The position numbers were made by a program, and so were the translations under genes. The notes under the pieces were generated by a model. It saw only the letters and a list, made by a program, of their open reading frames with translations, searched no databases and was not told the DNA's origin. DNA of 27,792 nucleotides from a virus (lineage: Duplodnaviria; Caudoviricetes): the IMG/VR virus record IMGVR_UViG_3300012933_000335, positions 1 through 27,792 of that record; one strand, 5' to 3'. Below, piece after piece: positions 13,325 through 27,410 of the stretch. The first letter of the stretch is position 1, and every line of letters begins with the position of its first letter.

Positions 13325-16300
13325 ATGGACCAATTAAACCCATTTGCAGGCAAGATGGAAGAGCTTTTAAAAGCCCGTCTTGAGAAAGCTGCGCAAGTTC
13401 GTGATTCGATTGCACGAAACGAAGTAGAAGTCGCAGCAGCCCGCGCAGATTGGGACAGTTCAATTGCCGGCAAGCTCGGTTTTGACATGGGTAGCACTGC
13501 TGGTTCAGTTGCCAACACTATTGCAGCTACGGCAGCTGAAGGTGCCGACGCTGTTGGTGCTCTTGCAGGCGGTTTCTACGATGCCAAGGTTGGTGCCTTG
13601 GACATGCACATCCCAGATCGAGCCAAAGTAGCTCGACTCCGTCAGCTGGCAGGCAAAGCCACCGAGGAAGACCTCAAAGTACTGGCTGCACCAGCAGGCG
13701 ATTTGCAGATGCCTAGCTACGTGGCTCCAATGTACCGCGAGCAGTTCAACCGCGGCACGTTTGAGACCAACCAGCAACGTATTGAAGCTGCAGAGAAGGC
13801 CCGTGATCGTGGCCAAGAAGTCCGCAAGGCTCTGAGCTTAGATGACCTGGTAGCTCGAGACCAAGTAACGGGCCAGAAGACCTCCGGTCTCGTCCGTCGG
13901 ACGCTTGGAGATGCAGCGGTATCCACTGCCAAGGGCATTGTTGGCCTGGGCGAGGCAGCAGTTGGTGTCGGTGACATCGCTACGCTTGGTTTGTCAGGCA
14001 AAGGCTGGGAAGCCATGGGGTATGACCCCAAAGGTACCCACAAGGTTCTGGATTCGTACTACAGCCCTGAACAGCGCGCTGCAAACGCCAAGGTACAAGA
14101 AGCCCAAGGCTTCCTGAACACGATTGAAGAGGGTTTGGACAACCCCAGCACCATTGCACAGGGCCTGATTCAGTCTTTGCCTGCAATGTTGGGTGGTGGT
14201 GCCATCGGCAAAGAGTTGCTGATGCAGTACCCCAAGGTCATGGAGCTCATCAGCAAGTCGCCTGCATTGGCAGCTCTGGCTGAGAAGCTTCCAGCTCTGA
14301 CGCAGGGTGGTGCAGCTGCAATTGGTGAAGGCACCCTCATGGCCGGCAACGTAGCCGAGGGTATCCGCCAAGAAACAGACGATCGTCGTCTCAGCTTGAA
14401 GCAGGCATTGCTTGCAACCGGCGCTGGTGTCCTTGGTGCCGGTGCAGCGGTGGGTGGCAACAAGCTTGCACGCCGTCTGGGCGTGGGTGACATCGATGAG
14501 GCTGTGGTTGCTGGCTCGTTGCAGCCTACCCGTCGTGGTGCCCTTACTGCACCAGTGCTCTCTACTGCGTTGGAGAGCGGCGAAGAAGCGGCTCAGTCTG
14601 CAGTGGAGACGGTTGCCAAGAACGTCGCACTGGACAAGGAATATGACGGGGGCTTGGGCAACGCCGTGGGCATGGGCGTGCTTACTGGTGGGCCCATGGG
14701 CTTTGTTGGTGGCTTGGGTGGCAGCGTAGCGGCCGATGGCAAGGAAGAGATCGACAAGCGCAACCGCCAGGCCAAGCAGAAAGATGCTGTAGCTACTGGC
14801 AACGTCGACAGCCTGGTTGACCCAGCCTCCAAAGACTACGATCCCGCGCGCGCAGTGGCTGCTTTGTACGGCAACAGCAAGCAGGAAGGTGCCACCGAAG
14901 ATACCAAGCAGACCAACTTCGAAAAGGCATCGAAGATCGTCTCCGACTTGGAAGAACGACGCGACGGTTTCGTCAAAGATCTGACCAAAAGCAAAGCCGT
15001 GCAGGAAGCACAGGCTCAGCTGGATGCAATGAAGCAAGTGCTGGCAGAGACCGACCCAGCAGATACCGCATTGGTCGCTAAGCGCACCGAGTTGGTCAAG
15101 GCATTGGAAGAGGAAGTTGGTTTTGTCAAAGCTGATGTGCAAACGCAGATCGATGAAACCAACAAGCAACTGAAGACTGCAGAGCAACGTCTGAAGACGT
15201 TCAATCAGCAGATGCAGGATCGCAACTTCGATGCGAAGGCGGCTGCAGCCAGCATCAGTAGCAGTGACCCAGTGGCTTCACAAGCCACAGCGGCCAAGAT
15301 CATCAGCTTGGCTATGGCAAGTCCTGAAGACCTTGATGTGGCCACTGCCGAGTTGCTGGCCACCGATGCCGGCAGCAAGCTGACTGAATCACAACGCAAA
15401 TTCTTCCGCGCATTCCTCAATGCACGCGTTGCTGAGAACTTGCTGAAGTCAACTGACGACGTCAGCGACAACGTCATGACCGGTGGCAAAGGCTACGTCG
15501 GTCTGAACACTTACCGATCCAACATGGCATCGGCATTGACCGGCAACAACAAGCGCGCAGCAGACAACCAGTTGAAGCAACTGGATTCATTTGCTGCAGA
15601 TCACGCTGCCAAAGCCAAGGTGTTGAACGATGCGCAAGCACAGTACTCGAGCACTGGTACTCCAGTCCAAGTGCTTAGCGACGGCAATCGCGGTTGGAGA
15701 ATCAATACTGGTACCCCGCTGTCTGAGACTGACATGCGAAATGGTGGGCACCTAACAGTCGACATGCGCAGCGGCAAGCTGATCGCAAAAGTCGGACAAG
15801 AGAGCCGAGCAATCACCAGCACAGCAAACGAACTGCGTGCTGCCTATGACCACAAGTTTTCTCCCTCACAGAAGGAGACCAATGATGTCAAGAACGAATC
15901 ACCCGCCTCGGGAGATCAGAGCACCCAAGAACGGTCTGCGCAGGAAGCCGCGGCAGAAGAAGGTGACACCGAAGGAAGTGGCGATGTTGGGCAGGGAGCA
16001 GCAGAGTCCGCTGTACAGAGCAGCGATGCAGCGTCTGCAGACGAAGTTGCCACGACGGATGGAGTGACTGAGGAGGCTCCTGCCTCTACTAAGGAAGCTG
16101 CTACGGCTGAAGGTCAAACCCAGTCTACTGAGGAAGCTAACACGACTGAGCAGCAGGGCACTGACGAAGTGCCCGTAGCGGCACCTGAAAATGAAACGAC
16201 GACTGGTCTCACAGTGCTCAGCGAGCAGACTTCGGACGAAGTGTTGCCTCCCAACACTAAGCTGGGCACCGTGTACCGCACCATCAACAAGGCGATCGCC

Positions 16301-19300
16301 TTCCTCACACAGACGAAGGCTCGCATCGAGAAGGACAGCGACATCGCCAAGGATCGTCCCCTGGTGTCGGTGTCGAACATGCTCAGCCGCTGGAATGCAG
16401 GTGAGGTGGTTCCATCGGACCTGTTTGCAGACGAGCTCATGGAAGGTGAGATCGGCGCGCTGACTAAGTTCCAAGAGTTTGCCAACAAGTGGTCTCCACT
16501 GATCCGTCAGAACCTGACCAAGGGTGGTATTGCCAACTTGAAAGGCAACCTCCCCACAGCTGAGTTCCTGTTCGAAGATCCGTTGCAGGACTTCTTCAAC
16601 AAGGATGGTTCAGTTGACGAGAACCTTGTCACGGCCATTGCTTATGGTGCCTACAACTTCCTCGTTGACTCGATGAACACGCCGGCATTGAAGGAAGATG
16701 AAGACATCCTGAAGATGCACGGTCTGCACGGTGCTGAAGTTACGGTCTCCCGTGAAGGTCGACGCGCAATGGCAACCCTTGCTCAGTTCAAGGACAGTGC
16801 CGCAAGCTCGATGGGTCGCTACGTGACTGATGCTCTTGGTTTGAAGGTCAACGACAAGGCGCCAGCCGACTACATGAGCAAGCTGCAGACAGCATTTGGT
16901 CTGCAGGCTCTGGTGTTGTTGTCTCAGGATGAAGTGAACATGGTTGACACTGTCACAGTCGACGGAGCCGACCTGAATCGCTACTTGCCTGGGATCGACA
17001 TCCAGCCCAACCCAGTCAAAGCCAAGTCTGGTAAGGACGTCTACCCAACGATCACGTATGTGCGCGTGCGTCGTGAGGCTGGTCTGCAGCTGCCGGATGA
17101 CAGCAAGTCAATCCGTGACGCCTCAGTGCAATCGCATGGTGTGGTTCAGCGTTTGTTCAGTTCCGAGCACGCCGGCCAGTACGCATCGTGGAAGCCCACG
17201 AAGTTCAGCCAGCAACAAGCCAAGAAGACAGACCAGAACATCTCCAAGACCCAGCGCCGCATCTTGAGCAAAGCGCAGCAGGTACCTCACCGCATCATCC
17301 CAGCAATGTGGGATGCCTTGTCGGTGTTGGGTGATGAGGTCATCCTCAAAGCTGCCGGCTGGACCGAGTACAACGAAGAGCGCATCCAGAAAGAGAACCG
17401 TGACTCAGTCATGGCAAAGAATCTGGGCTTGGAAGACCAGTTGTCAGCGATGAAGGCACTGGTTCAAGACGCTATCGACAACAGTCCCGAGAAGATCAAC
17501 CAGCCGTTCTACGCAACGCTCGAAGTCTGGAAGAACTTCCGTGTTGGTGTGGCTACGCACAACATGAACTTGCAGAGCAGCAAGATTCATCGCTTCATGT
17601 TCACCCGCCCTGAGTGGGAGAGCACGATCTCGTTGAACGATGACGCAGCCATCGAGCAATTGGTGGTGTCTTTGGCTCAGGCGTTTGGTGTGAAGATCGA
17701 CCAGCAGCCAAACATCGAAACGATGGCTAAATTCAAGGACATGGTTGAGGCTGATGACGGACGCATTCAGAAGATGGCCATGGCTTTGGCCAAGGCACTG
17801 GAAACACCGACCGTAGAAGCGCTCACCGCAGTCCAGAAGGAAGAGATCGCCAAGTTCACTGCAGATGCCGAGGGCATGCAAACGCTCCAGGCCTTGGTGG
17901 CTTACGGCCAGTTCGAGAATGCCAAGCAGATCGGTCTCGACGCAGTCACCGTGAACATGTTGGTGGGTGTGGATGGCAAAACCAACGGCCCGATCCTGAC
18001 CTACTTGGCTTTGGGTGCAGAAGAGAACGTTGATTCGTTGTTTACGCAGATCAACCGCGGCGGCATGTACCGTGCAGCGGACAACACCAAGAACTACAAC
18101 GACTGGTACACGCGCGCTACCAGCTTGGACTTGTACGAAGACTTGGCCAGCAAGATCTTGGAAGGCATTGAAGCCAGCCCTCAGCTTGCTGCCATCTACA
18201 CGTTCACCAAGGAATTGACCAGCGGTGACAAGGTGACGTCTGCCGGCCGTAACTTGGCCAAGACTCCGCTGACATCGTTCATCTTTGGTTCGTCAGTCGA
18301 CAAGTCGATCGAGAACATGAAGGACGCTTTCGTCCAGTCTGTGTTTGACCGCATCGAAGCCGTGGCCAACGGGGATGACAAGAAGACGACCCGTCTGCAG
18401 ATCATCCAGAGTTTGAACACGCTGATGGGAAGCAAGATTCCTGAAAGCGCTGGTATCGAGTTCTTGTTGAACCGCGAGTTCAGCGAGAAGGAGAAAGCTG
18501 CTTTGGCTGATGCGTTCAACCAGCAGCTAGGCTCTCGTGTTGAAGACACAATGAAGTTCTACTTTGACACGTACCTGACTCGCCGCAACGACATTAACGG
18601 CACCATTCAGGGCGCCTTCAAAATCTACGACGCAATCTATCAAGACCTCCGAGCCAAAGAGATCCAACGTCTCATGGACGAGGGGGAGATGGATTTCGTG
18701 GTCCGCAACGGAGAGCGTCTGCCTACCCACGAGATGACTGTGGCTCAGGAGAAAGCATTGCGTGACAAGGTCCAAGGCATCCTGCCTTTGGCCAACACCG
18801 CGTACACCGTTGATGACAACGAGTTGGATGCTGGCCTGTACATGGCCAAGACCCGCAAGGGTGCTGGTGACCAGAACAGCGACAAGGTCAAGGTCCTGCT
18901 GGGCAAGTTGATCCCGACGGGTGACAACTGGCGAACCAACCAGATCAGTGGCTGGGCAACCCGGAGCATGGAGACATCCCCTGGTGTTGCTGGTTTGCCG
19001 TACCTGATGCACTCGTTTGACTCTGCAGTCATGCACACGTCTTTGGAAGACACCGATACATTGAACGTGCACGACGAAGCCGGGAACGGTGTGAACAATG
19101 TCAAGCGCACAGCGACCGCCATCAACAAAGCCACCTTTGATCAGATGCTCAACTTCTCGCCGGCGACTGAAGCCTATGCGATGTTGGGCCGTGTGATCAC
19201 CAACGCAGTGACCATGATCGAAGCCGGCGAAGTGTCGACTGATGCGCTGGCTAGTGTGAAGGAGGCTTTGCGCGCAGCCTTGCCATTCAAGATGCGCAAC

Positions 19301-22300
19301 AAGGTCAAGGATGCCAACCTGCCTACGATGGTTATCGAGCTTGCCAACGCTGCCCAGTTCAATGCGAACAAGCTGCGTTTGGAAGCGCTGTCTGAGATTG
19401 TGGCCATTGACCAGTACACCTGGGAAGGTGGCGAGTACCAGGTCACCGAGGATGATCGAGACAAAGCAGTTGCAGCCCTTGAGCGTGCCAAGCTGAGCCG
19501 CAAGGTCAACCCTGAGTTGGCCGCAGCTGCTGAGAAACTGGGTGCTGCACTGCAGGCTACTCGAGCAAAAGCCGAAGCAACAACCAACGAAGCCGACAAG
19601 ACCAGCAACGCACGCAGTGTGTTTGGCAACGTGGGCCCATCCTTGATTCGCAGCGATGCAGATCTGGTGGAGTTCTTCCGAGCCAACCCACAAGCCAACG
19701 CACGTCAGGTCTACGAACTGATGATGCAGAGCGGCCGCTTGAACGCTGTCAACAGCAAGCTGATGAAGTTGCTTTCCCGTGTGGTCAACCCAGACCTGAG
19801 CATTCGATTCATCACGCCCCAGACTGCTGGCAGCGTGGTTTTGGACATGCCGCCCACCGCCGCGCGCGCGTGGTACGTGGTCAAAGGAAATGCCAAAGAG
19901 GTCTACGTTCTCAGCCCTGAGTTCGAAAGCTCTGGTTTGACCTACGAGACTTTGCTGCATGAGCTCGTGCACGCAGCCGTGGCTGAAGTCATCGACAGCC
20001 CGTCCGCTGATGCCAAGGCTTTGGTGGAAGAACTGGAAGCGCTTCGTCAGAAAGCGGCTGAGTACGCTCAGACTGCTGGCTTGAAGGACTACGCCGCGGC
20101 ACTGGGTGATGTTCAGGAGTTCGTGGCTTGGGGTATGACGAGCCAAGCGTTCCAACGAGACGTCCTGAACAAGATCTCCATGGAGTCCAAGACCCGTGGC
20201 AATGCGCTGGTCACCGGCATGCAGAAGTTCATCGACACCTTGGCCAAGCTGCTGTTCAAGAAGCCTGACCAAGCAACAACCAACGGCCTGAGTGTTCTGG
20301 TTTCGAACGTCTCTGGCTTGTTTGCCGAAGCAGCCCAGCAACGTGACAACCCCACATCGTTGACCTTGGCTCAGGCCACTGTGGCAGCGGTTGATCGCTA
20401 CACCACGTTGGACATCCACCAGGCCCTGGATAACGGGACCGTGGAGCCACGATTCCAGGCTCACCTAGCCAACCTCCTCAGCGGCATCGTTGAGAGCCTC
20501 CACGGCCCGTTTGGCTCGTTTGCGGCCCAGATGCGCAAGGCAGAAGCAGGGAACCCTCTGGCGGTATGGCTAAAAGCCATGGAAACAGGGAATGCCCCGT
20601 TTGCTTCGGCCATCGTAGGGTCGGGTTTTGCAGGCAGCGCGCAGGAAGACCATGCGATGCAACAGGTGGAAGCCACGGTCAAGGCTGCATTGGACGGCAG
20701 CGAGACCACCACCAAGGCGTTGTACCGTGAGTTGTACAAGCTGTACGACGAGATGCGCGCCAAGCTCAAGCCATCGGACTTCGCCTCGCAGGAAGACTAC
20801 GACTTTGTCTTCAAGATCGAGGCAGACCGTGGTGACCGCTCGGACTACCTTGCCCGCTTTGCAGCCATGGGCTTGGCCAACCAGAAGTTCAACGCCCTCA
20901 TGAAGGTGGCCACAGACCGTGACACCACGGCAGTGGGTGAGGGCAAGACCCTCATGGATCGCTTGGCCAATGTGTTTGAGAAGATCCTTGGTTTCCTCAA
21001 CGAGAAGCTGACTCGCACCTTTGGTGGCCAGCAAGCCGATGAGAAGCTCATGGCGTTGGTCAGCCAGCTGGTCGACATCGAAGCCAAGAAGCGTTCGTTG
21101 ATCAACCTCCGCAATACTGAGCCGTCCCCAACCAACGACATTGAAAAGTCGGTGAAGGGTGTTGTGGAGTACGGCCGTGAGAAGCTGAGCCAACTGGCCA
21201 GCACAGACATGGTCAAGAACAGCCGCAGTGGTGTGGTTCGCCTGGCTGGTACCGTGACCCGGTTGTCTAACCTGGGCGTCGTTGACAAGTACATGGACGA
21301 CATTCGTCAGTTCCATGACAAGCACGTCAAAGAAAAGACGTCCTTGGGCATCTCGATGCTCAATGAACTGCGCGGTCCGCTGCAGCGCATGGAAGAGTTG
21401 CTCCGTTTCCGCAAGAAACAGGAACAGCAACGCAAGCGCATCATCAACCAGAAGTCCAAGCAGACGCTGGAGATGTTCGTCAACAACGGCAAGGGCTTGT
21501 CCAAGGAAGACAAAGCTGCGTTGACCAGTGCCTTGCTGCGCACTGGTGCTCACAACTTGCTTGGCAAGTACAGCATGGCCGAGATTGACCAGCTGTTGAG
21601 TGACAGCGCTAAGCGCCAGCAGACGATTGATCTGTTGGTGGCTCAGCTGCCACAGAACCTGCGTGACGCCTACGTCGAGCAGATCAACGGTCTGGGCTTC
21701 TACAAAGCGACTGGCAAGTCACGCACACCGGTTCTGATGCTGAACGCGCACATCATTTCCCGCTTGGCTGGAACCAAGTACGAGAAGCGCATCACCAAAG
21801 CCGATGCGGCAAAGGTTGAGAACACCATTAAGCAGTTGATCGTGCTCTACACGATGCGCTACTTGGATAGCAGAGACCGCAACCGTGCAGTCCAAGCCAT
21901 GCGTACCGAGAGCGCTCGCACTGACGGTGCCAACGGTGCTGAGTTCTTGATGATCTTGCACCAGCGCATGGAGCAGGAATCGTTGGAACGCCTGTTCAAC
22001 AACAACCCTGCGCTGATGATGCACGGCTACACGCCTGAGATCACCAACCCGCATACGGTGTTTGAGGTTGCAGACTTTGACCGCGGCACTGCTTTGATGG
22101 AGCAGGGCTATGTGAAGAGTCACCCAGTGGTTGATGACACTGCAGATCCGAATGCCGGAGCCAAGCACATCTATGTGCTGAAGGACGGTGGTTTGGCGCC
22201 TTGGTTGTCTGGCATCTTCTCGACGTCAGACTTGCACACCAAGGGTACGACTCAGCACAACGGCTGGATGAACGTCAACACTGAAGACGGCTTGGACAAT

Positions 22301-23845
22301 GCCGCGTTGCAGATGGCCATCACGTCGCAGAAGCTCAAGCAGATGAACATGTTGATCGGCCCCGATCGCAACATGGATCAGGACAACCTGAACTACTTGG
22401 TTCCGGTCTACAACGAGCGCGGCGAGATCACCAACTGGCGTTACATGATGTCGGACCGTTTGCGTGACGAAATCCTCGAGCGTGACAACAGCTTTGATCG
22501 CGTCATGGGTGTGTTTGCTGGTTCGATCTACGACAAGGAAACCAGTGAGGATGTGAACCGGGACGTGATCCAGGCCCTGGCAGACCAGTTCGACGAAGAC
22601 TACGCAACCCAGCCGGACTCCTACGTTGAAGTCGGCCCGAACTCTGCAGATCCAAAGCTGCGTGAGATCTGGGCGTTGCTCTCTGATCCGTCGCGCGAGA
22701 CCATCCGCAAGGTTTGGGGTCAGCGCGCGATGATGGTCCGCAGCGATTCGCTGGACATTGTCTTTGGCTACCGCAAGTTGTCGCTGGCTCAGACTTTCTT
22801 GAAAGAGCCGCGCATGCGCAACGACTTCGAGCGCTTCACACTGGAAGCTCTGGAAGGCATGCTTATTCGCTACGGCCGTACCCCTGAGCAGGCTGCAAAC
22901 CACATCAAAAAGATTGGCAACAAAGTGGCCAAGGGGGAGCGCATGTGGCAAGAGATCGTGCGCGAGATCAAGGACATTGTGGTCGTCAAGAACGTGACGA
23001 CTCTGATGGGCAACATCTACTCGAACTTCTCATTCCTGTACGCCGCCGGCGTTCCTTGGAAAGATATCCTGCATCACCACATCGTCGCCATCAAGGGCAC
23101 GCTGTCCTACTACGAAGACACTGCTCGCCTGGCCGAGTTGGAGACGTTGATTGCCACTGGCTACACCCAAGGCAATGCCGATGAGGTGCGCCGTGAGATC
23201 GTTCGTTTACGAGACCTGGTTGACCGCAACCCAGTCAAGAAACTCATGGACGCTGGCTTGATGCCAACGATTGTGGAAGACGTGGCTCAGGAGCAGGACG
23301 TGTACTCTTACAAGAGCTTGCTCCAACGCAAGACCGAGAAGTACACCGACAAGTTGAACCCAAAGGTCAAAGACCTTGGCCGTATTGTCTACATGGCTCA
23401 CGACACCAAGATGTACCAGCTGCTTAGCCATGCGACTCAGATGTCTGACTTCGTGGCTCGCTACACGCTGTTCCAACATTTGGTTTCCCGCAAGGAAGAC
23501 CCGATGAGCGAACGCGATGCAATGAGTGAAGTGTCCGAGTCGTTCATCAACTATGACATTCCAATGCACCGCAGCATGCAGTACTTTGATGACATGGGCA
23601 TCATCCCGTTCACCAAGTATTTCCTGCGCATTCAGCGCGTGTTGGTGAAGAACTTCCGTAAGAATCCATCGAGAATTCTTTCGATGGCAATGTTGGATCA
23701 CTACATGAGTTTAGGACCCATCGTTCTGGACAGTTCCTTCGCTCACCACCTGGGTAACAACCCGTTGCACGGTGGGGCGCTGCGATTCCCAATGACTTTG
23801 GATGAGCTTGGTACTGTGAAGGCAGCAATGGCCTTGGTGAAGTAA
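13325..23845 (+). CDS. Virion-encapsidated RNA polymerase (N4 gp50-like vRNAP)
   Basis: 3506 aa with no Cys seen. Single-subunit RNAP motifs: A (DGKTNG, Asp at 17972), B (RNLAKTPLTSFIFG, 18248-18289) and C (LNVHD, 19061-19075). The C-terminus has Q.SDFVARY and F.NYD...F.KYFLRIQ. Confidence 0.96.
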   Translation: MDQLNPFAGKMEELLKARLEKAAQVRDSIARNEVEVAAARADWDSSIAGKLGFDMGSTAGSVANTIAATAAEGADAVGALAGGFYDAKVGALDMHIPDRAKVARLRQLAGKATEEDLKVLAAPAGDLQMPSYVAPMYREQFNRGTFETNQQRIEAAEKARDRGQEVRKALSLDDLVARDQVTGQKTSGLVRRTLGDAAVSTAKGIVGLGEAAVGVGDIATLGLSGKGWEAMGYDPKGTHKVLDSYYSPEQRAANAKVQEAQGFLNTIEEGLDNPSTIAQGLIQSLPAMLGGGAIGKELLMQYPKVMELISKSPALAALAEKLPALTQGGAAAIGEGTLMAGNVAEGIRQETDDRRLSLKQALLATGAGVLGAGAAVGGNKLARRLGVGDIDEAVVAGSLQPTRRGALTAPVLSTALESGEEAAQSAVETVAKNVALDKEYDGGLGNAVGMGVLTGGPMGFVGGLGGSVAADGKEEIDKRNRQAKQKDAVATGNVDSLVDPASKDYDPARAVAALYGNSKQEGATEDTKQTNFEKASKIVSDLEERRDGFVKDLTKSKAVQEAQAQLDAMKQVLAETDPADTALVAKRTELVKALEEEVGFVKADVQTQIDETNKQLKTAEQRLKTFNQQMQDRNFDAKAAAASISSSDPVASQATAAKIISLAMASPEDLDVATAELLATDAGSKLTESQRKFFRAFLNARVAENLLKSTDDVSDNVMTGGKGYVGLNTYRSNMASALTGNNKRAADNQLKQLDSFAADHAAKAKVLNDAQAQYSSTGTPVQVLSDGNRGWRINTGTPLSETDMRNGGHLTVDMRSGKLIAKVGQESRAITSTANELRAAYDHKFSPSQKETNDVKNESPASGDQSTQERSAQEAAAEEGDTEGSGDVGQGAAESAVQSSDAASADEVATTDGVTEEAPASTKEAATAEGQTQSTEEANTTEQQGTDEVPVAAPENETTTGLTVLSEQTSDEVLPPNTKLGTVYRTINKAIAFLTQTKARIEKDSDIAKDRPLVSVSNMLSRWNAGEVVPSDLFADELMEGEIGALTKFQEFANKWSPLIRQNLTKGGIANLKGNLPTAEFLFEDPLQDFFNKDGSVDENLVTAIAYGAYNFLVDSMNTPALKEDEDILKMHGLHGAEVTVSREGRRAMATLAQFKDSAASSMGRYVTDALGLKVNDKAPADYMSKLQTAFGLQALVLLSQDEVNMVDTVTVDGADLNRYLPGIDIQPNPVKAKSGKDVYPTITYVRVRREAGLQLPDDSKSIRDASVQSHGVVQRLFSSEHAGQYASWKPTKFSQQQAKKTDQNISKTQRRILSKAQQVPHRIIPAMWDALSVLGDEVILKAAGWTEYNEERIQKENRDSVMAKNLGLEDQLSAMKALVQDAIDNSPEKINQPFYATLEVWKNFRVGVATHNMNLQSSKIHRFMFTRPEWESTISLNDDAAIEQLVVSLAQAFGVKIDQQPNIETMAKFKDMVEADDGRIQKMAMALAKALETPTVEALTAVQKEEIAKFTADAEGMQTLQALVAYGQFENAKQIGLDAVTVNMLVGVDGKTNGPILTYLALGAEENVDSLFTQINRGGMYRAADNTKNYNDWYTRATSLDLYEDLASKILEGIEASPQLAAIYTFTKELTSGDKVTSAGRNLAKTPLTSFIFGSSVDKSIENMKDAFVQSVFDRIEAVANGDDKKTTRLQIIQSLNTLMGSKIPESAGIEFLLNREFSEKEKAALADAFNQQLGSRVEDTMKFYFDTYLTRRNDINGTIQGAFKIYDAIYQDLRAKEIQRLMDEGEMDFVVRNGERLPTHEMTVAQEKALRDKVQGILPLANTAYTVDDNELDAGLYMAKTRKGAGDQNSDKVKVLLGKLIPTGDNWRTNQISGWATRSMETSPGVAGLPYLMHSFDSAVMHTSLEDTDTLNVHDEAGNGVNNVKRTATAINKATFDQMLNFSPATEAYAMLGRVITNAVTMIEAGEVSTDALASVKEALRAALPFKMRNKVKDANLPTMVIELANAAQFNANKLRLEALSEIVAIDQYTWEGGEYQVTEDDRDKAVAALERAKLSRKVNPELAAAAEKLGAALQATRAKAEATTNEADKTSNARSVFGNVGPSLIRSDADLVEFFRANPQANARQVYELMMQSGRLNAVNSKLMKLLSRVVNPDLSIRFITPQTAGSVVLDMPPTAARAWYVVKGNAKEVYVLSPEFESSGLTYETLLHELVHAAVAEVIDSPSADAKALVEELEALRQKAAEYAQTAGLKDYAAALGDVQEFVAWGMTSQAFQRDVLNKISMESKTRGNALVTGMQKFIDTLAKLLFKKPDQATTNGLSVLVSNVSGLFAEAAQQRDNPTSLTLAQATVAAVDRYTTLDIHQALDNGTVEPRFQAHLANLLSGIVESLHGPFGSFAAQMRKAEAGNPLAVWLKAMETGNAPFASAIVGSGFAGSAQEDHAMQQVEATVKAALDGSETTTKALYRELYKLYDEMRAKLKPSDFASQEDYDFVFKIEADRGDRSDYLARFAAMGLANQKFNALMKVATDRDTTAVGEGKTLMDRLANVFEKILGFLNEKLTRTFGGQQADEKLMALVSQLVDIEAKKRSLINLRNTEPSPTNDIEKSVKGVVEYGREKLSQLASTDMVKNSRSGVVRLAGTVTRLSNLGVVDKYMDDIRQFHDKHVKEKTSLGISMLNELRGPLQRMEELLRFRKKQEQQRKRIINQKSKQTLEMFVNNGKGLSKEDKAALTSALLRTGAHNLLGKYSMAEIDQLLSDSAKRQQTIDLLVAQLPQNLRDAYVEQINGLGFYKATGKSRTPVLMLNAHIISRLAGTKYEKRITKADAAKVENTIKQLIVLYTMRYLDSRDRNRAVQAMRTESARTDGANGAEFLMILHQRMEQESLERLFNNNPALMMHGYTPEITNPHTVFEVADFDRGTALMEQGYVKSHPVVDDTADPNAGAKHIYVLKDGGLAPWLSGIFSTSDLHTKGTTQHNGWMNVNTEDGLDNAALQMAITSQKLKQMNMLIGPDRNMDQDNLNYLVPVYNERGEITNWRYMMSDRLRDEILERDNSFDRVMGVFAGSIYDKETSEDVNRDVIQALADQFDEDYATQPDSYVEVGPNSADPKLREIWALLSDPSRETIRKVWGQRAMMVRSDSLDIVFGYRKLSLAQTFLKEPRMRNDFERFTLEALEGMLIRYGRTPEQAANHIKKIGNKVAKGERMWQEIVREIKDIVVVKNVTTLMGNIYSNFSFLYAAGVPWKDILHHHIVAIKGTLSYYEDTARLAELETLIATGYTQGNADEVRREIVRLRDLVDRNPVKKLMDAGLMPTIVEDVAQEQDVYSYKSLLQRKTEKYTDKLNPKVKDLGRIVYMAHDTKMYQLLSHATQMSDFVARYTLFQHLVSRKEDPMSERDAMSEVSESFINYDIPMHRSMQYFDDMGIIPFTKYFLRIQRVLVKNFRKNPSRILSMAMLDHYMSLGPIVLDSSFAHHLGNNPLHGGALRFPMTLDELGTVKAAMALVK

Positions 23846-23848
23846 CCC

Positions 23849-24520
23849 TCAAGGGTGAGGACTGGTCCGGCCCACCGGGAACCCCCAGTGGCAGTCCTCA
23901 CTCTTGAAAGTCCTGGTCTCTCCCAGGTGTCACACGAATGTTCTTGCACTGTTGCTTGCCCCAGAGGTTTACGCGTACTCTGGTGACTCATGCTGGTAGA
24001 TCGTGTATTACCGCTGCTCTGTGATGCAACCATCAAGCAAACCACTGCCAATTAGCCTTGCGGCTGTTGTCATCTGAAACGACCCGGAGCGCGACTCCCA
24101 GGCTCAGTGGCTTGCTTGATGGTCTTCGTCTCTCCGAAGTGTCACGCCGTTCTGCTGGACTTCTGACCCCCAGGCGTTCTCTCGTCGCAATTACAAACAA
24201 TCCAGCTTGTGCCGCACCCCGGAAACCAGGCGGATGGCAGAGCCCCTTGCGGGGTTGGGTAATAGGTTGATGGTGGTTCCGTTCATTTTTGAGCGTGGGC
24301 TCCGACGGAACAGCGGAGATAGAACAATATTCAAAACAGGCCCTGTTACTGTAGCTGCATAGGGGTTTATGGGCTCAGGGTCTGTTTGGTTTCACCATCA
24401 AGGGTAGGGACTGCTCACATAAAGCAGTGTAGGGAAGGAGTCTCATGGCTAAAAGCAATGAGCAACGGCGCTAACCCGTTGCCAGTCCCTACTCTTAATG
24501 GTGGTGCCTTACGGGCACCA
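23849..24520 (-). ncRNA. Putative structured non-coding RNA array (repeated long-stem modules)
   Basis: No credible ORF. Four stems of 12-21 bp with related arm sequences, two identical-loop hairpins with covarying stems, and GNRA loops on the - strand. The strand is inferred and not certain. Confidence 0.6.
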
Positions 24521-24564
24521 GTCGGTCTTGCATTTTATTACCTGCCTCAGCAAGACATGGCAGG

Positions 24565-24870
24565 TTACTTGACGAGAAGTTCGTCCAGCTTACCGCCCTT
24601 GGTCACATGGTCTTCAACCCATTTGGGTTTGCGTCCTCGTCCAGACCAGGCTTGGGTGCCTAGTTTGTATTTGGTTGCGACCTTCGATTTCCCTACAGGA
24701 ACAAACTTGTTGGGCTCACCGAAATCAAGATCTCGGGAACGGATGCCGTAGGTTCGGATCATCGAGTTGATGTTCTGAATTGCTTCGGACTTCTCCGTGG
24801 CCAGCAGTTCGTCGCGCTCTTTCTGGAGTGCGTCGATCTTCTGCTGGAGCTCAGTCAGCTTGTTAGCCAT
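24565..24870 (-). CDS. hns: H-NS family nucleoid-associated protein (short Bv3F/BpH3 type)
   Basis: 101 aa: an N-terminal coiled coil, then YGI...DL, KY and the DNA-binding signature WSGRGRKPKW. An alternative in-frame GTG start at 24975 has AAGGAG 4 nt upstream. Confidence 0.9.
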   Translation of the reverse strand: MANKLTELQQKIDALQKERDELLATEKSEAIQNINSMIRTYGIRSRDLDFGEPNKFVPVGKSKVATKYKLGTQAWSGRGRKPKWVEDHVTKGGKLDELLVK

Positions 24871-24925: not shown

Positions 24926-25138
24926 TCAGCTACCTCTTTTTTCGCTCGTTGCTGAGCGGGCTGAACTTGATTCACAGTACTCCTTGATGAGGTATGCGAT
25001 GAATCCAACGATTGCTGCGGTGCACAGGGCGATGCCTACTGCGAATGCAATCGCTGCGATCAGTGCACCACCAATCAATAGTACAGCTAGAACCAAGGAA
25101 GCGGCTAGTACATAGCCGGTCCACTTGATGACACCCAT
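24926..25138 (-). CDS. Small membrane protein
   Basis: 70 aa with a ~45-residue uninterrupted hydrophobic stretch (two probable TM helices). It is co-oriented and tightly packed with its neighbours. Confidence 0.65.
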   Translation of the reverse strand: MGVIKWTGYVLAASLVLAVLLIGGALIAAIAFAVGIALCTAAIVGFIAYLIKEYCESSSARSATSEKRGS

Positions 25139-25150
25139 ACCTTCAACAGG

Positions 25151-25501
25151 TTAGTTGTTGAAGAGACTGGTGGTCTTTGCCGGAGTTGCTTCAGGTTCAG
25201 AGGCTTCCACTAGAGCTTTGGCTGTTGGCTCAGCGGCAGCAGCTTCAGTCGCAGGAGTTGCGATAGCAGCAGTCGCCGGTTGAACCACGCTCAGAGCGGG
25301 CTTGGCATTGTCTTCGACGGCCGAGTCGCTGAAGCCAGGAATGCTGGCGTCTTCGATCGTCACGTCGGCGATGATGCCGGCGGCACCACGAGTGGCAGAG
25401 AACGCGATGTCCACGGTCTTGCCGGTCACGTTGATGCCTTGAGCAGCGATGTACTGCTTCAGAGCAGCTACGATTTCAGCTTGTTTGAACTGAATTTGCA
25501 T
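25151..25501 (-). CDS. N4-like conserved hypothetical protein downstream of the resolvase
   Basis: 116 aa starting MQIQFKQAEIVAALKQYI with SD AGGGA. It has an Ala/Pro/Glu-rich tail ending TTSLFNN. Confidence 0.75.
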   Translation of the reverse strand: MQIQFKQAEIVAALKQYIAAQGINVTGKTVDIAFSATRGAAGIIADVTIEDASIPGFSDSAVEDNAKPALSVVQPATAAIATPATEAAAAEPTAKALVEASEPEATPAKTTSLFNN

Positions 25502-25515
25502 TGGGTATTCCCTTG

Positions 25516-26091
25516 TTAACGCACTGTCATGGACAGCATTTGTTGAAACGCATTGCAGGACATGCCTGCATGAATTGCAGCAATGGCATCGGCCATGTGC
25601 TCGGCTTTCGCTTCGCTGACCAATGTCGCCCCGTGCTGCTGGTAAGTTGGCCAATTGGCTTCAGGATGTGTCGCCATGGCCCACTTGATCATGTCTTGCT
25701 TGGTGGCTGTCTTGTTGCCTACGCTTGCAAGCTTGACCTCAGTTGGGGTCACTTCGAAGAAGGGGATACCGTTCGCTCTCAATGCCCCAAGGACACCCAC
25801 GCAGATGCCGTAGGAAGCCATGGCTCGAGCAGATTGACTGCCGACCGGGACTTCCACGAATACTGCTTGAGCGCCGAAAGAGGCGTCGACTGCACCTTTG
25901 TACAACTGGAATGCTGACTCGAGATCTAAGCTGTTTTGACGAACTTGCTTGCCTTTCGGGAGTTCCGGATTCGTCAGAGCAACGTACTCGATCGTGAGTT
26001 TTTTGGTTTCCAGGTTCAGGGAGCCGACCGCTAGACCCCAGTTTCTTAGACTGGGATCTTGACCCACAACCTTAATGACTTTGCTCGTCAT
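25516..26091 (-). CDS. RuvC-like Holliday junction resolvase (N4 gp46-like)
   Basis: RuvC pattern: VVGQDPSLRNWG (Asp), FVEVP (Glu), P.EVK....G...ATK..M and EHMADAIA. The start is taken at MTSKVIK. Confidence 0.88.
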   Translation of the reverse strand: MTSKVIKVVGQDPSLRNWGLAVGSLNLETKKLTIEYVALTNPELPKGKQVRQNSLDLESAFQLYKGAVDASFGAQAVFVEVPVGSQSARAMASYGICVGVLGALRANGIPFFEVTPTEVKLASVGNKTATKQDMIKWAMATHPEANWPTYQQHGATLVSEAKAEHMADAIAAIHAGMSCNAFQQMLSMTVR

Positions 26092-26380
26092 TGGCTGCAG
26101 GTGCTTCCTCATCATCGTCGGTCTCGAACGCAAATGGCAAGGTGCCAAGTTCGGCCAGAGCAATGGTGATACCCAAGCTGAAACCGCGTCGCATCTCAGG
26201 TGTGAACTCATGGTCCACGCCTTCGATCTCGACTACGGTCCCTTCAGGGATTTCTTCCATGTGCTTCAGCATGCGAATCTTGGTGTCGTGCCAACGAACT
26301 AACAGCTTGATGAAGTGGTCAAGGTCATGGACCTCGACAGTTTCTGGTTTGGCTTCAGGAGCTTCGTTGATTTCGCTCAT
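26072..26380 (-). CDS. Hypothetical acidic protein
   Basis: 102 aa. It has an ATGA overlap with the upstream gene's stop and a 20-nt overlap with the resolvase. Confidence 0.7.
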   Translation of the reverse strand: MSEINEAPEAKPETVEVHDLDHFIKLLVRWHDTKIRMLKHMEEIPEGTVVEIEGVDHEFTPEMRRGFSLGITIALAELGTLPFAFETDDDEEAPAANDEQSH

Positions 26381-26862
26381 ACGATTCCCCAATCATTTGC
26401 CAGGATGTCGGTCTGACTGGCTACCCATGGAACAACATCGTTGTTTACAGTCTTCATGGCGATGTAGTCACGGTACGGAACCAGACTGTTGTCGCCAAAG
26501 AAGCTCTTGGCAGCTGCCATCTTGACCGGATAGTAGTCGGCCGTCACGTAGTACAGGAACATGCCTTTGCCGTTCCACCCGTCGCGCGTGACCTTGAAGC
26601 CCTTCTTCAGCGCTTCCACGGCCAGGCCGAAGGACATGCCATCGGTTGGTTTGTAAGCGTTGTTGAAGACTGCTTCAGGTGACCAGCTGATGTAGCCGGC
26701 GTGATCAGGGTGGTTGGCTTGGCCACCATCCGTGTACTCAACCAGGTAGCCTGCGTCGTCACCGTTCTCGTCAGATGGGAGAGTCCATCCACGATACTGG
26801 TTGTACGCAAGGCGTGTCATGGGTTTAGCGTGGATCAGTTTGACCCCGATGAATTGCTTCAT
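26377..26862 (-). CDS. Two-domain protein: uncharacterised N-terminal phage domain + DUF2829 (Tad2-like sponge) domain
   Basis: 161 aa with SD GGAG. The C-half MSFG.A.EALK.G.KV.R.GWNGKGMFL...YI.MKT....VPW.ASQTDILA.DW matches the DUF2829 pattern. The N-half is K.FIG.K...A.PM...GYLVEY...GYISWSP..VF..AY. Confidence 0.85.
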   Translation of the reverse strand: MKQFIGVKLIHAKPMTRLAYNQYRGWTLPSDENGDDAGYLVEYTDGGQANHPDHAGYISWSPEAVFNNAYKPTDGMSFGLAVEALKKGFKVTRDGWNGKGMFLYYVTADYYPVKMAAAKSFFGDNSLVPYRDYIAMKTVNNDVVPWVASQTDILANDWGIV

Positions 26863-26866
26863 GGTT

Positions 26867-27151
26867 TCACTCCAATCCAGCTTCGAAACGACGTTGGCGC
26901 AGGAGGTAACCCTCCAGTGCCCACAGCTGCTCGAACGCTTTCTCGTAGGCGTATTTCTCGCCCAGAGCCTGGTTGTAGTTCTTCGGATCCACACAACCAC
27001 TCGTACCGATCAGCGTGAAGCCGTTCTCTAGAGTGATCTGACAGATCGTCGTTGTAGTGCCTTCAAGACGCTGATAAATCGTCATCTTGATCTTGGCTTC
27101 CATGTCGGAAACCGTCACCCGGCTGGGGATTCGTTCTTCTTGTGCGTCCAT
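26867..27151 (-). CDS. N4 gp49/Sf6 gp66 family protein (Acb4-like sponge)
   Basis: 94 aa. TTIC.ITLENGFT..G.SGCVDP.NY...LG...AYE.AF..LW.LEGYLL matches the family pattern as I recall it. Confidence 0.85.
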   Translation of the reverse strand: MDAQEERIPSRVTVSDMEAKIKMTIYQRLEGTTTTICQITLENGFTLIGTSGCVDPKNYNQALGEKYAYEKAFEQLWALEGYLLRQRRFEAGLE

Positions 27152-27158
27152 GCTGGTG

Positions 27159-27356
27159 TTACTCGGCAGGAGGTGTGGGAGGAACGGGTGGAACCGGGGG
27201 CTGCAACGCGTTCAGTTGCTGGGTCACCTGCTGCTGAATCGAAGTGATCGTCGCGGCCACACGGTCGTAGGGTTGGGTACCCAACGACGTGAGGACGTTG
27301 TTGATCTGCTCCAGGTTCAGAGCCACGGTGACTGGGGTGTTGCCGTCAACTTTCAT
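27159..27356 (-). CDS. Small hypothetical protein with Pro-rich tail
   Basis: 65 aa with SD AAAGGA. It has a helix-PY-helix core (IN.VL..LG.QPY..V...I..I.QQ). Confidence 0.7.
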   Translation of the reverse strand: MKVDGNTPVTVALNLEQINNVLTSLGTQPYDRVAATITSIQQQVTQQLNALQPPVPPVPPTPPAE

Positions 27357-27370
27357 GGTCTTCCTTTTTC

Positions 27371-27400
27371 AAAAATGGGGATGACCAGATGACCATCCCC
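27371..27400 (-). terminator. Intrinsic terminator after ssb
   Basis: On the - strand: GGGGATGGTC-ATCT-GGTCATCCCC-ATTTTT (stem includes G-U pairs). Confidence 0.7.
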
Positions 27401-27410
27401 TGGATCCGCA

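Follow-up and report, generated by a model that had tools for sequence, protein, structure and literature searches.

The window, that is, the whole stretch of 27,792 nucleotides that was analysed, originated from an N4-like phage. Between positions 23846 and 24564 it contained an array of structured elements in a gap without genes, flanked by the genes for a virion RNA polymerase (vRNAP) and an H-NS-like protein (Table 1). The last 499 amino acids of the vRNAP open reading frame were 44% identical to Litunavirus vRNAP. Sequencing runs containing the gap were mainly freshwater metagenomes, and cassette matches in bacterial genomes (see below) suggest that the host was probably a betaproteobacterium. 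A Staphylococcal-nuclease-family gene (PF00565; 12527-13261, plus strand) was located just ahead of the vRNAP gene, in the late gene block. No reverse transcriptase was found among the 22 scanned proteins of the window, which is the sole contig of its assembly and covers part of the genome.

The array was preceded by a run of genes on its own strand. The N4 Gp49 family in this run, PF13876, is one which we take to be the Acb4 family. In Migulavirinae, the region matching the run is an anti-signalling hotspot, and the Pseudomonas Migulavirinae run of Acb4-Sequestin, the RuvC-like Bes1 and Bes2 is an experimentally tested anti-CBASS/Thoeris hotspot (10.64898/2026.06.04.730250). Four small minus-strand genes in the anti-defence run of the window (25151-25501, 24926-25138, 26072-26392 and 27159-27356) could be assigned to no Pfam family and are candidates for further counter-defence proteins. 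The segments 25158-25348 and 27122-27409 of the window were replaced in relatives.

Table 1. Positions of the genes and array modules in the window.
Feature	Positions	Strand	Description
vRNAP gene	13325..23845	+	ORF of 3506 aa; stop codon touches stem A
Cassette A	23845..23911	-	long stem, mismatched at its position 8; RNA expected from 23902 to 23852 (51 nt)
Module E	23903..24035	-	pseudoknot (24006-24001 with 23937-23932), then UGACA and terminal hairpin (23927-23912; 5 bp, GAGAGA loop)
Cassette B	24029..24123	-	long stem around three-hairpin cloverleaf; predicted RNA 24114 to 24036 (79 nt)
Module F	24115..24263	-	GNRA hairpin, crossing helices (24206-24199 with 24159-24154; 24177-24173 with 24148-24144), then UGACA and GAGAGA hairpin (24139-24124)
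Module G	24264..24400	-	predicted closure by the re-paired 3' arm of D (24400-24393 with 24275-24268, from complementarity), ACC next; stem C (24387-24334) as inner arm
Cassette D	24394..24502	-	long stem around a GUUAGCG-loop hairpin (loop 24475-24469), a middle that varies and includes a C/U-rich strand (24441-24432), and a 3' hairpin that is conserved (24429-24413); RNA expected at about 24493 to 24401 (93 nt)
Module H	24494..24564	-	H-type pseudoknot (24564-24559 with 24546-24541; 24556-24550 with 24531-24525) immediately after the hns stop, and 6-bp CGUAA-loop hairpin (24519-24503)
H-NS-like gene	24565..24870	-	PF00816, E 5.8e-10; final coding gene ahead of the array
Upstream gene run	25516..27151	-	on the strand of the array; RuvC-like, Tad2-like and N4 Gp49 family genes
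RuvC-like gene	25516-26106	-	PF02075, weak match; 44% identical to LUZ7 gp67
Tad2-like gene	26377-26862	-	PF11195
N4 Gp49 family gene	26867-27151	-	PF13876

Modules and strand of the array

A preliminary description of the gap had proposed an array of four long stems enclosing variable cargo, and all four stems were present. An inverted-repeat search returned A (23849-64/23892-907), B (24029-47/24105-23) and D (24393-413/24483-503), with arms of 16-21 nt that were 90-95% complementary, and C (24334-45/24376-87; 12 bp) was read in the sequence. The swap of GA/TC to AG/CT on the arms of A and D and the CTG...CAG closure of the stems were likewise found as described. A and D also had in common the non-canonical pair that had been pointed out, but if the RNA is, as seems most likely, read from the minus strand, this 'G-T' becomes an A-C mismatch. 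On either strand, the 715-nt gap folded better than each of 20 dinucleotide shuffles (z of -5.65 for plus and -4.40 for minus). In a folding model without pseudoknots, single stem modules reached z values of -3.1 to -7.4, and the A-B and B-C spacers alone +0.2 to -1.2.

The view that the array resembles no recognised RNA family also held within the range of Rfam 15 and of the literature searched. There was no Rfam or ARAGORN match in the window, and no known family was recognised with Rfam 15, the top match in the gap having 10.8 bits (E 7.4). None of the Rfam 15 models for known ribozymes, riboswitches, Y RNA, tmRNA, GOLLD or other families fitted, and the tRNA model (RF00005) had no match in the window. 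The only repeats were a 31-nt one and a stem arm, each in two copies, so that a mimic of type III antitoxins and an array of CRISPR-like repeats were both rejected.

The array of stem modules turned out to be only half of the picture. The gap consisted of seven modules, namely the stem-closed cassettes D, B and A and the conserved spacers H, G, F and E. These four spacers had been overlooked, together with the strand, the hairpin ahead of each stem, the link to tRNA and the spread beyond N4-like phages; stem C, described as a module of its own, is an arm within the larger module G. Spacers E, F and H were pseudoknots ending in a hairpin. Covariation among homologues, in the form of two-sided changes, was found in E, F, H, D and the frame hairpin. 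In nine sequences of module E, 96% of cells were paired and 9 of 21 pairs had a two-sided change; module F had a single compensatory change, which was shared by 3 of 12 copies (counted by eye), and one of nine distinct copies of module H had a two-sided change in the second helix. The modules and the covariation were seen directly, and we are highly confident that the gap is a functional structured RNA array.

On the minus strand, each cassette was preceded by the same frame: UGACA was followed by a hairpin, either of 5 bp with the loop GAAAGA or GAGAGA or of 6 bp with the loop CGUAA, and this led into the stem. Across 81 regions, the UGACA-hairpin leader units occurred 54 times on the minus strand versus twice on the plus strand. 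For 39 stems obtained with a strand-neutral score, the minus strand gave 46 G-U versus 11 A-C pairs (positions 8-9 excluded). All 11 Rfam tRNA matches in relatives, located in 8 of the 40 loci scanned, were also on the minus strand. These counts argue with good confidence for the minus strand as the sense of the predicted array RNA, behind hns and the anti-defence gene run.

Relatives, cargo types and family D

An alignment search with the vRNAP end succeeded where a search with the single sequence of the locus had found no loci, and gave 80 viral and 40 metagenome loci. The pattern of the two-copy 31-nt repeat was found at 21 viral loci, five of which were N4-like relatives with the same gap. 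In 50,697 phage records, blastn of the gap returned one chance match only, and no homologue of a D-family cassette or of a tRNA-like cassette was detected.

At least one window module was present in 18 of 121 N4-like loci, a set that includes some phages twice; the modules were absent from most of these loci. Module F was found in 14 loci, D in 8, E and B in 6 each, H in 5 and C in 2, and the cargo of A in none of the relatives (0 of 121). The module sets did not track vRNAP identity: H, D, B and F were present in L038 (51% identity), and only F in L023 (67%). Cassette B of L038 was 97% identical to that of the window, although the vRNAP was only 51% identical. In contigs from two separate studies, cassette B was exactly missing, with 24026 joined to 24126. 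Both the patchy subsets in relatives and this exact loss were observed directly, and they strongly support the earlier claim of modular stems with variable cargo. Outside the N4-like clade, the pattern of B gave chance matches only. Many relatives had long stems in the gap region, and some had true tRNAs. Contigs from RNA libraries contained pieces of the relatives' E, B, F, G and C; since coding vRNAP pieces were present at similar depth (61-65 vs 77-79), these contigs are no evidence of expression. Other N4-like clades (L063-L074, L077, L079, L087, L093 and L101) had long stems in the same region with a different outer sequence, and the same design may therefore exist in versions built on other frames.

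A search with a pattern of the hairpin and the stem start, in which pairing was not demanded, matched 114 viral loci. The hairpin was perfectly paired in 107 of these and a long closing stem was present in 79; N4 flank genes were found at only six (flanks were short in 34). The frame pattern also occurred in 12 bacterial genomes, mostly Burkholderiales and kin; 11 of these matches looked like true cassettes by eye, and a Bordetella cassette had a D-type cargo. The cassettes of bacterial genomes presumably lie in prophages.

By a crude 12-nt rule, 104 distinct cassettes were grouped into 53 cargo families. The cargos of L153, L188, L197 and L198 had Rfam tRNA matches, and their inner stem from position 8 was the acceptor stem of a tRNA body, the anticodon arm of which was shortened or replaced. 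A hairpin at the place of the T arm was present in 16 of the 53 families, versus 5.4 in shuffles (highest 11), and the T-loop consensus in 8. Leu-like pseudo-tRNAs, in which 3 nt bulged out of the acceptor stem and the anticodon arm was non-canonical, were located in the gap after the vRNAP gene (minus strand) of L027, L034 and L043, where ARAGORN called them with the anticodon unassigned. Seven loci (L043, L148, L153, L190, L193, L207 and L383) had a recurrent tRNA-shaped spacer after a cassette; its first and last hairpin loops were complementary, similar to tRNA-elbow mimicry by kissing contact, and no Rfam match was obtained in the copies scanned. A tRNA match at L069:3889-4022 (minus strand) had an anticodon arm about 70 bases longer. 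On a viral contig, a permuted betaproteobacterial-type tmRNA (L213:1591-1925, minus strand) was located immediately upstream of a cassette. The arrays of L030 and L027 contained protein genes, RNA polymerase alpha C-terminal-domain-like and lipoprotein-like (by eye).

The viral copies of family D are estimated at about 420, of which 120 were listed. From 142 matches to the 3' motif in the loci collected here, 103 distinct copies with the 5' hairpin and then 93 distinct by their stems were retained. The loop GUUAGCG was present in 80 of these 93, and hairpin positions 5 and 6, which were unselected for pairing, were paired in 84 and 79 copies. The closing stem had a mean length of 11.0 nt versus 6.0 ± 0.2 nt with swapped partners, and the middle was the least conserved part (10-58 nt). 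A tRNA was near family D in 7 of 92 loci, and the copy of L286 was located among five tRNAs. No Rfam family fitted the family D loci. Many copies (L260-L379) adjoined another stem frame, in which the inner stem was as in A and D and an internal loop replaced the mismatch.

Predicted processing and its alternatives

Release of the cargo by RNase III-type cleavage, as raised in the preliminary description, was assessed with a matrix of pair counts from 85 E. coli RNase III duplexes, taken from Table S4 of PMC6212723. The top register was after position 7 in 23 of 36 N4-linked stems, scored with this E. coli matrix for a host that is probably a betaproteobacterium. The mean matrix score was 2.26 bits versus -3.37 ± 0.62 for shuffled pairs, and the inner half of 44 held-out stems, which are kin, scored 1.42 versus -2.15 ± 0.45; as the stems are related to each other, all of these shuffle contrasts are inflated. 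Counted by cargo family, the position-7 register was found in 11 of 20, and the modal count in shuffles reached up to 10 of 20. As in RNase III substrates, the stems had about 20 bp with few interruptions, and the D/D' and A/A' pairs were found over the 36 stems. A-U or U-A was present at position 10 in 34 and at position 3 in 35 of the 36, and positions 6 and 7 were paired in 35 each. Between the cuts, where E. coli prefers G-C, position 7 was G-C in 22 stems and position 6 was G-C or C-G in 9. Mismatches clustered at position 8 (19 of 36 stems), and the table of PMC6212723 contains many unpaired cases at the equivalent position. In the window, the best register of stem D was 6 (1.0; register 7 scored -3.2) and stem C was off by one pair. 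The mapped dicF-dicB site had a similar stem with the same register; being part of the training set of the matrix, it checks the convention only. The preference of the stems for one register thus supports the proposed release at the level of sequence, and cleavage by RNase III at about the position-7 register is likely.

A second partner for the outer 3' arm was found 25-200 nt downstream in 60 of 99 stems, versus 7.5 ± 2.7 for shuffled 7-mers; upstream partners were found for 24 of 93. After the 60 re-paired modules, the second position was C in 37 and NCCA followed in 7. In the window, it is this re-pairing that, judged by complementarity, would close module G. In view of the re-pairing pattern, we regard the frame hairpin as most probably a 3' domain that belongs to the preceding RNA, and not as a promoter.

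In the proposed mechanism, every long stem would fold first. RNase III would then cut its 5' arm after position 7 and its 3' arm two pairs closer to the outer end, which would set free a cargo closed by a stem of 7-10 bp and with a 3' end that overhangs by 2 nt. In the tRNA-derived cargos of relatives, the cut end would correspond to tRNA +1 and to the discriminator end. The freed 3' arm would re-pair with a downstream copy of the outer 7-8 nt of the stem, by which the next spacer would be closed as a second tRNA-shaped RNA. The common hairpin-plus-stem frame could double as homology for cassette exchange, and the RNAs may titrate host RNA-binding or tRNA-attacking defence proteins. On balance we favour, as a whole, a minus-strand array that is gained, lost and reordered and likely cut by RNase III, its small stable RNAs being possible protein-binding decoys in trans. 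A decoy or anti-defence role, already suggested in the preliminary description, is plausible from the neighbourhood and the tRNA-like cargos in relatives, and is put forward tentatively; its context is the position on the same strand behind the sponge genes, the hotspot-like turnover and the tRNA mimics in relatives. More speculatively, phages of Betaproteobacteria might share portable cassettes as exchangeable RNA decoys against tRNA-attacking or RNA-sensing defences. One and the same stem would then serve twice: it would first be cut by RNase III, and would afterwards supply acceptor-like stems to two products with the shape of tRNA. The dozens of plugged-in cargos would correspond, at the level of RNA, to the neighbouring hotspot of protein sponges.

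The same processing could also yield small RNAs that use C/U-rich strands to pair with host or phage mRNAs and silence them, in which case the tRNA shape would be no more than a stabilising scaffold. The C/U-rich strand of cassette D is unpaired, CTCC, TCCT or CCTT occurred in 42 of 93 D-family middles (their purine counterparts in 22), C-rich strands are also present in the LUZ7 gap, and DicF is a prophage small RNA processed by RNase III. We nevertheless consider silencing unlikely: no target was found in the 27.8-kb window, where the sole exact complement match was the element itself, the longest complementarity to the rest of the window was 11-12 nt versus 10-16 nt in shuffles, and the putative antisense strand lies in the least conserved part of D. 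A route through the tRNA pathway, in which RNase P would cut at +1 of the acceptor-like stems, exonucleases would form the 3' end and the long stems would be a by-product of acceptor-sequence reuse, is less probable still. Position 8 does equal tRNA +1 in the tRNA-derived cargos, relatives have true tRNAs in the same region, and the re-paired 7-bp stem with the 5-bp hairpin has what we take to be the size of a minihelix. However, the T-loop consensus is lacking in A, B and D and limited to the 8 of 53 cargo families mentioned above, an RNase P leader would be buried by the 16-20-bp stem, and the RNase III matrix fits both stem halves. The two routes predict the same ends, and both may operate.

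Two further readings place the function in the DNA or deny one. The TGACA-hairpin might be a promoter, either of the sigma-70 type (-35, 18 nt, -10-like box) or similar to the hairpin middle promoters of LUZ7, with each cassette as its own transcript. Several copies indeed have TTGACA, 18 nt and TATCA or CATCAT, and LUZ7 middle promoters are described in the available part of PMC9163698 as GC-rich hairpins about 15 bp ahead of the start. What makes a promoter very unlikely is where the unit occurs: directly ahead of a terminator (L025, L026, L048), within the cargo at the T-arm place (L172, L389) and at the end of re-paired modules (L147, L157). In addition, A, L043 and L045 have only a poor -10-like box, transcription beginning 7 nt past this box would cut through the conserved inner stem, and a promoter scan gave 0 sites. 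Alternatively, the gap might have no RNA function and be either a tRNA cluster in decay or a set of repeats that act purely as DNA (recombination sites, cruciforms, terminators). This would be in line with cassettes that are dispensable in nature, with stem A at the location of a terminator hairpin in several other relatives and with the odd anticodon arms of the pseudo-tRNAs in L027, L034 and L043. Such a reading is rendered highly improbable by the pairs that changed on both sides in E, F, H, D and the frame hairpin, by the G-U bias toward one strand and by a D core that is near-invariant across 93 copies in unrelated phages.

Comparison with known systems and meaning of the array

The LUZ7 small RNA hotspot resembles the window in that an N4-like phage has a non-coding gap between a RuvC-like gene run and the vRNAP end. 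For this orf69-orf70 gap, the part of PMC9163698 that was available reports abundant late RNAs of <250 nt (sRNA1-3), one apparently processed and one without a start site, and describes no cassette array or enzyme. The LUZ7 gap, which matches that of LIT1, also has a long stem around hairpins, one of them with a GNRA-like loop. Among cultured relatives (LUZ7, LIT1 and Ab09), a published deletion of gp57-61 (41,096-42,899) spares the non-coding gap, the match to which is at 43,363-43,860. Unlike in the window, three genes lie between gap and vRNAP and no UGACA hairpin was seen, and there was no blastn match. The gap of the window is not the same interval as that of sRNA1-3; the neighbourhood alone is in common.

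The dicB operon leader (prophage Qin, DicF) is a phage-derived polycistron processed by RNase III, in which two segments (69 and 130 nt) are each closed by a stem whose two arms are both cut (PMC6212723). Its dicF-dicB stem resembled one cassette stem of L045 in an identical register. In contrast to the window, the leader is a fixed locus that supplies a single small RNA as well as protein genes, and the hairpin and outer-stem motifs of the frame were not matched in it. We know of no cargo exchange in the dicB operon leader.

RNA C and RNA D of T4 are small RNAs out of a phage tRNA region, with a role that is left unexplained in the accessible part of PMC3014915. They differ from the window in being two fixed RNAs; the window itself is without tRNA. 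To our knowledge, no function has been assigned to those RNAs from phage tRNA regions that are not tRNAs (T4 RNA C and D, LUZ7 small RNAs). The C4, CI and isrK antisense RNAs (P1, P4) are short processed phage RNAs, and their long closing stem resembles those of the window cassettes. Their models (RF01695, RF03163, RF01394) had no match in the window or the scanned cassette loci, while the C4, c4-a1b1 and isrK models recovered P1 and P4 controls at 68.8-74.9 bits. No complementary targets above shuffles were found in the rest of the window, and a link of the frame hairpin to C4/CI RNA failed when tested.

In the PARIS study, a phage tRNA reportedly served as counter-defence. A phage tRNA also offsets the tRNA-cutting Septu system, as stated in the available part of PMC13096335. 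The RNAs proposed here would share with these the origin in a phage tRNA region and the offsetting of a tRNA-cutting defence. The Septu and PARIS phage tRNAs decode and replace the cut tRNA, whereas the window modules cannot decode; they could act against tRNA-cutting defences solely as decoys. The UG27 array is a different system that comes with a reverse transcriptase, as far as the available part of its description goes (10.64898/2026.09.22.753630). No description of the cassette frame or of family D was found in the literature searched, in which subscription journals were thinly covered. The examined part of the PMC10690425 supplement gave no motif match, and an unnamed candidate may be contained there.

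That the structured RNA cassette system is real is well supported, and it would extend RNase III-punctuated phage RNA regions with undescribed families. The array comprises several RNA families absent from Rfam, one of which has hundreds of viral copies. The locus offers a testable cut-out rule that predicts the ends exactly, together with a natural scaffold into which cargos can be plugged. Phage counter-defence is mostly known from proteins; if the decoy role is true, the cassettes would represent a class of swappable RNA anti-defence factors beside a proven protein hotspot.
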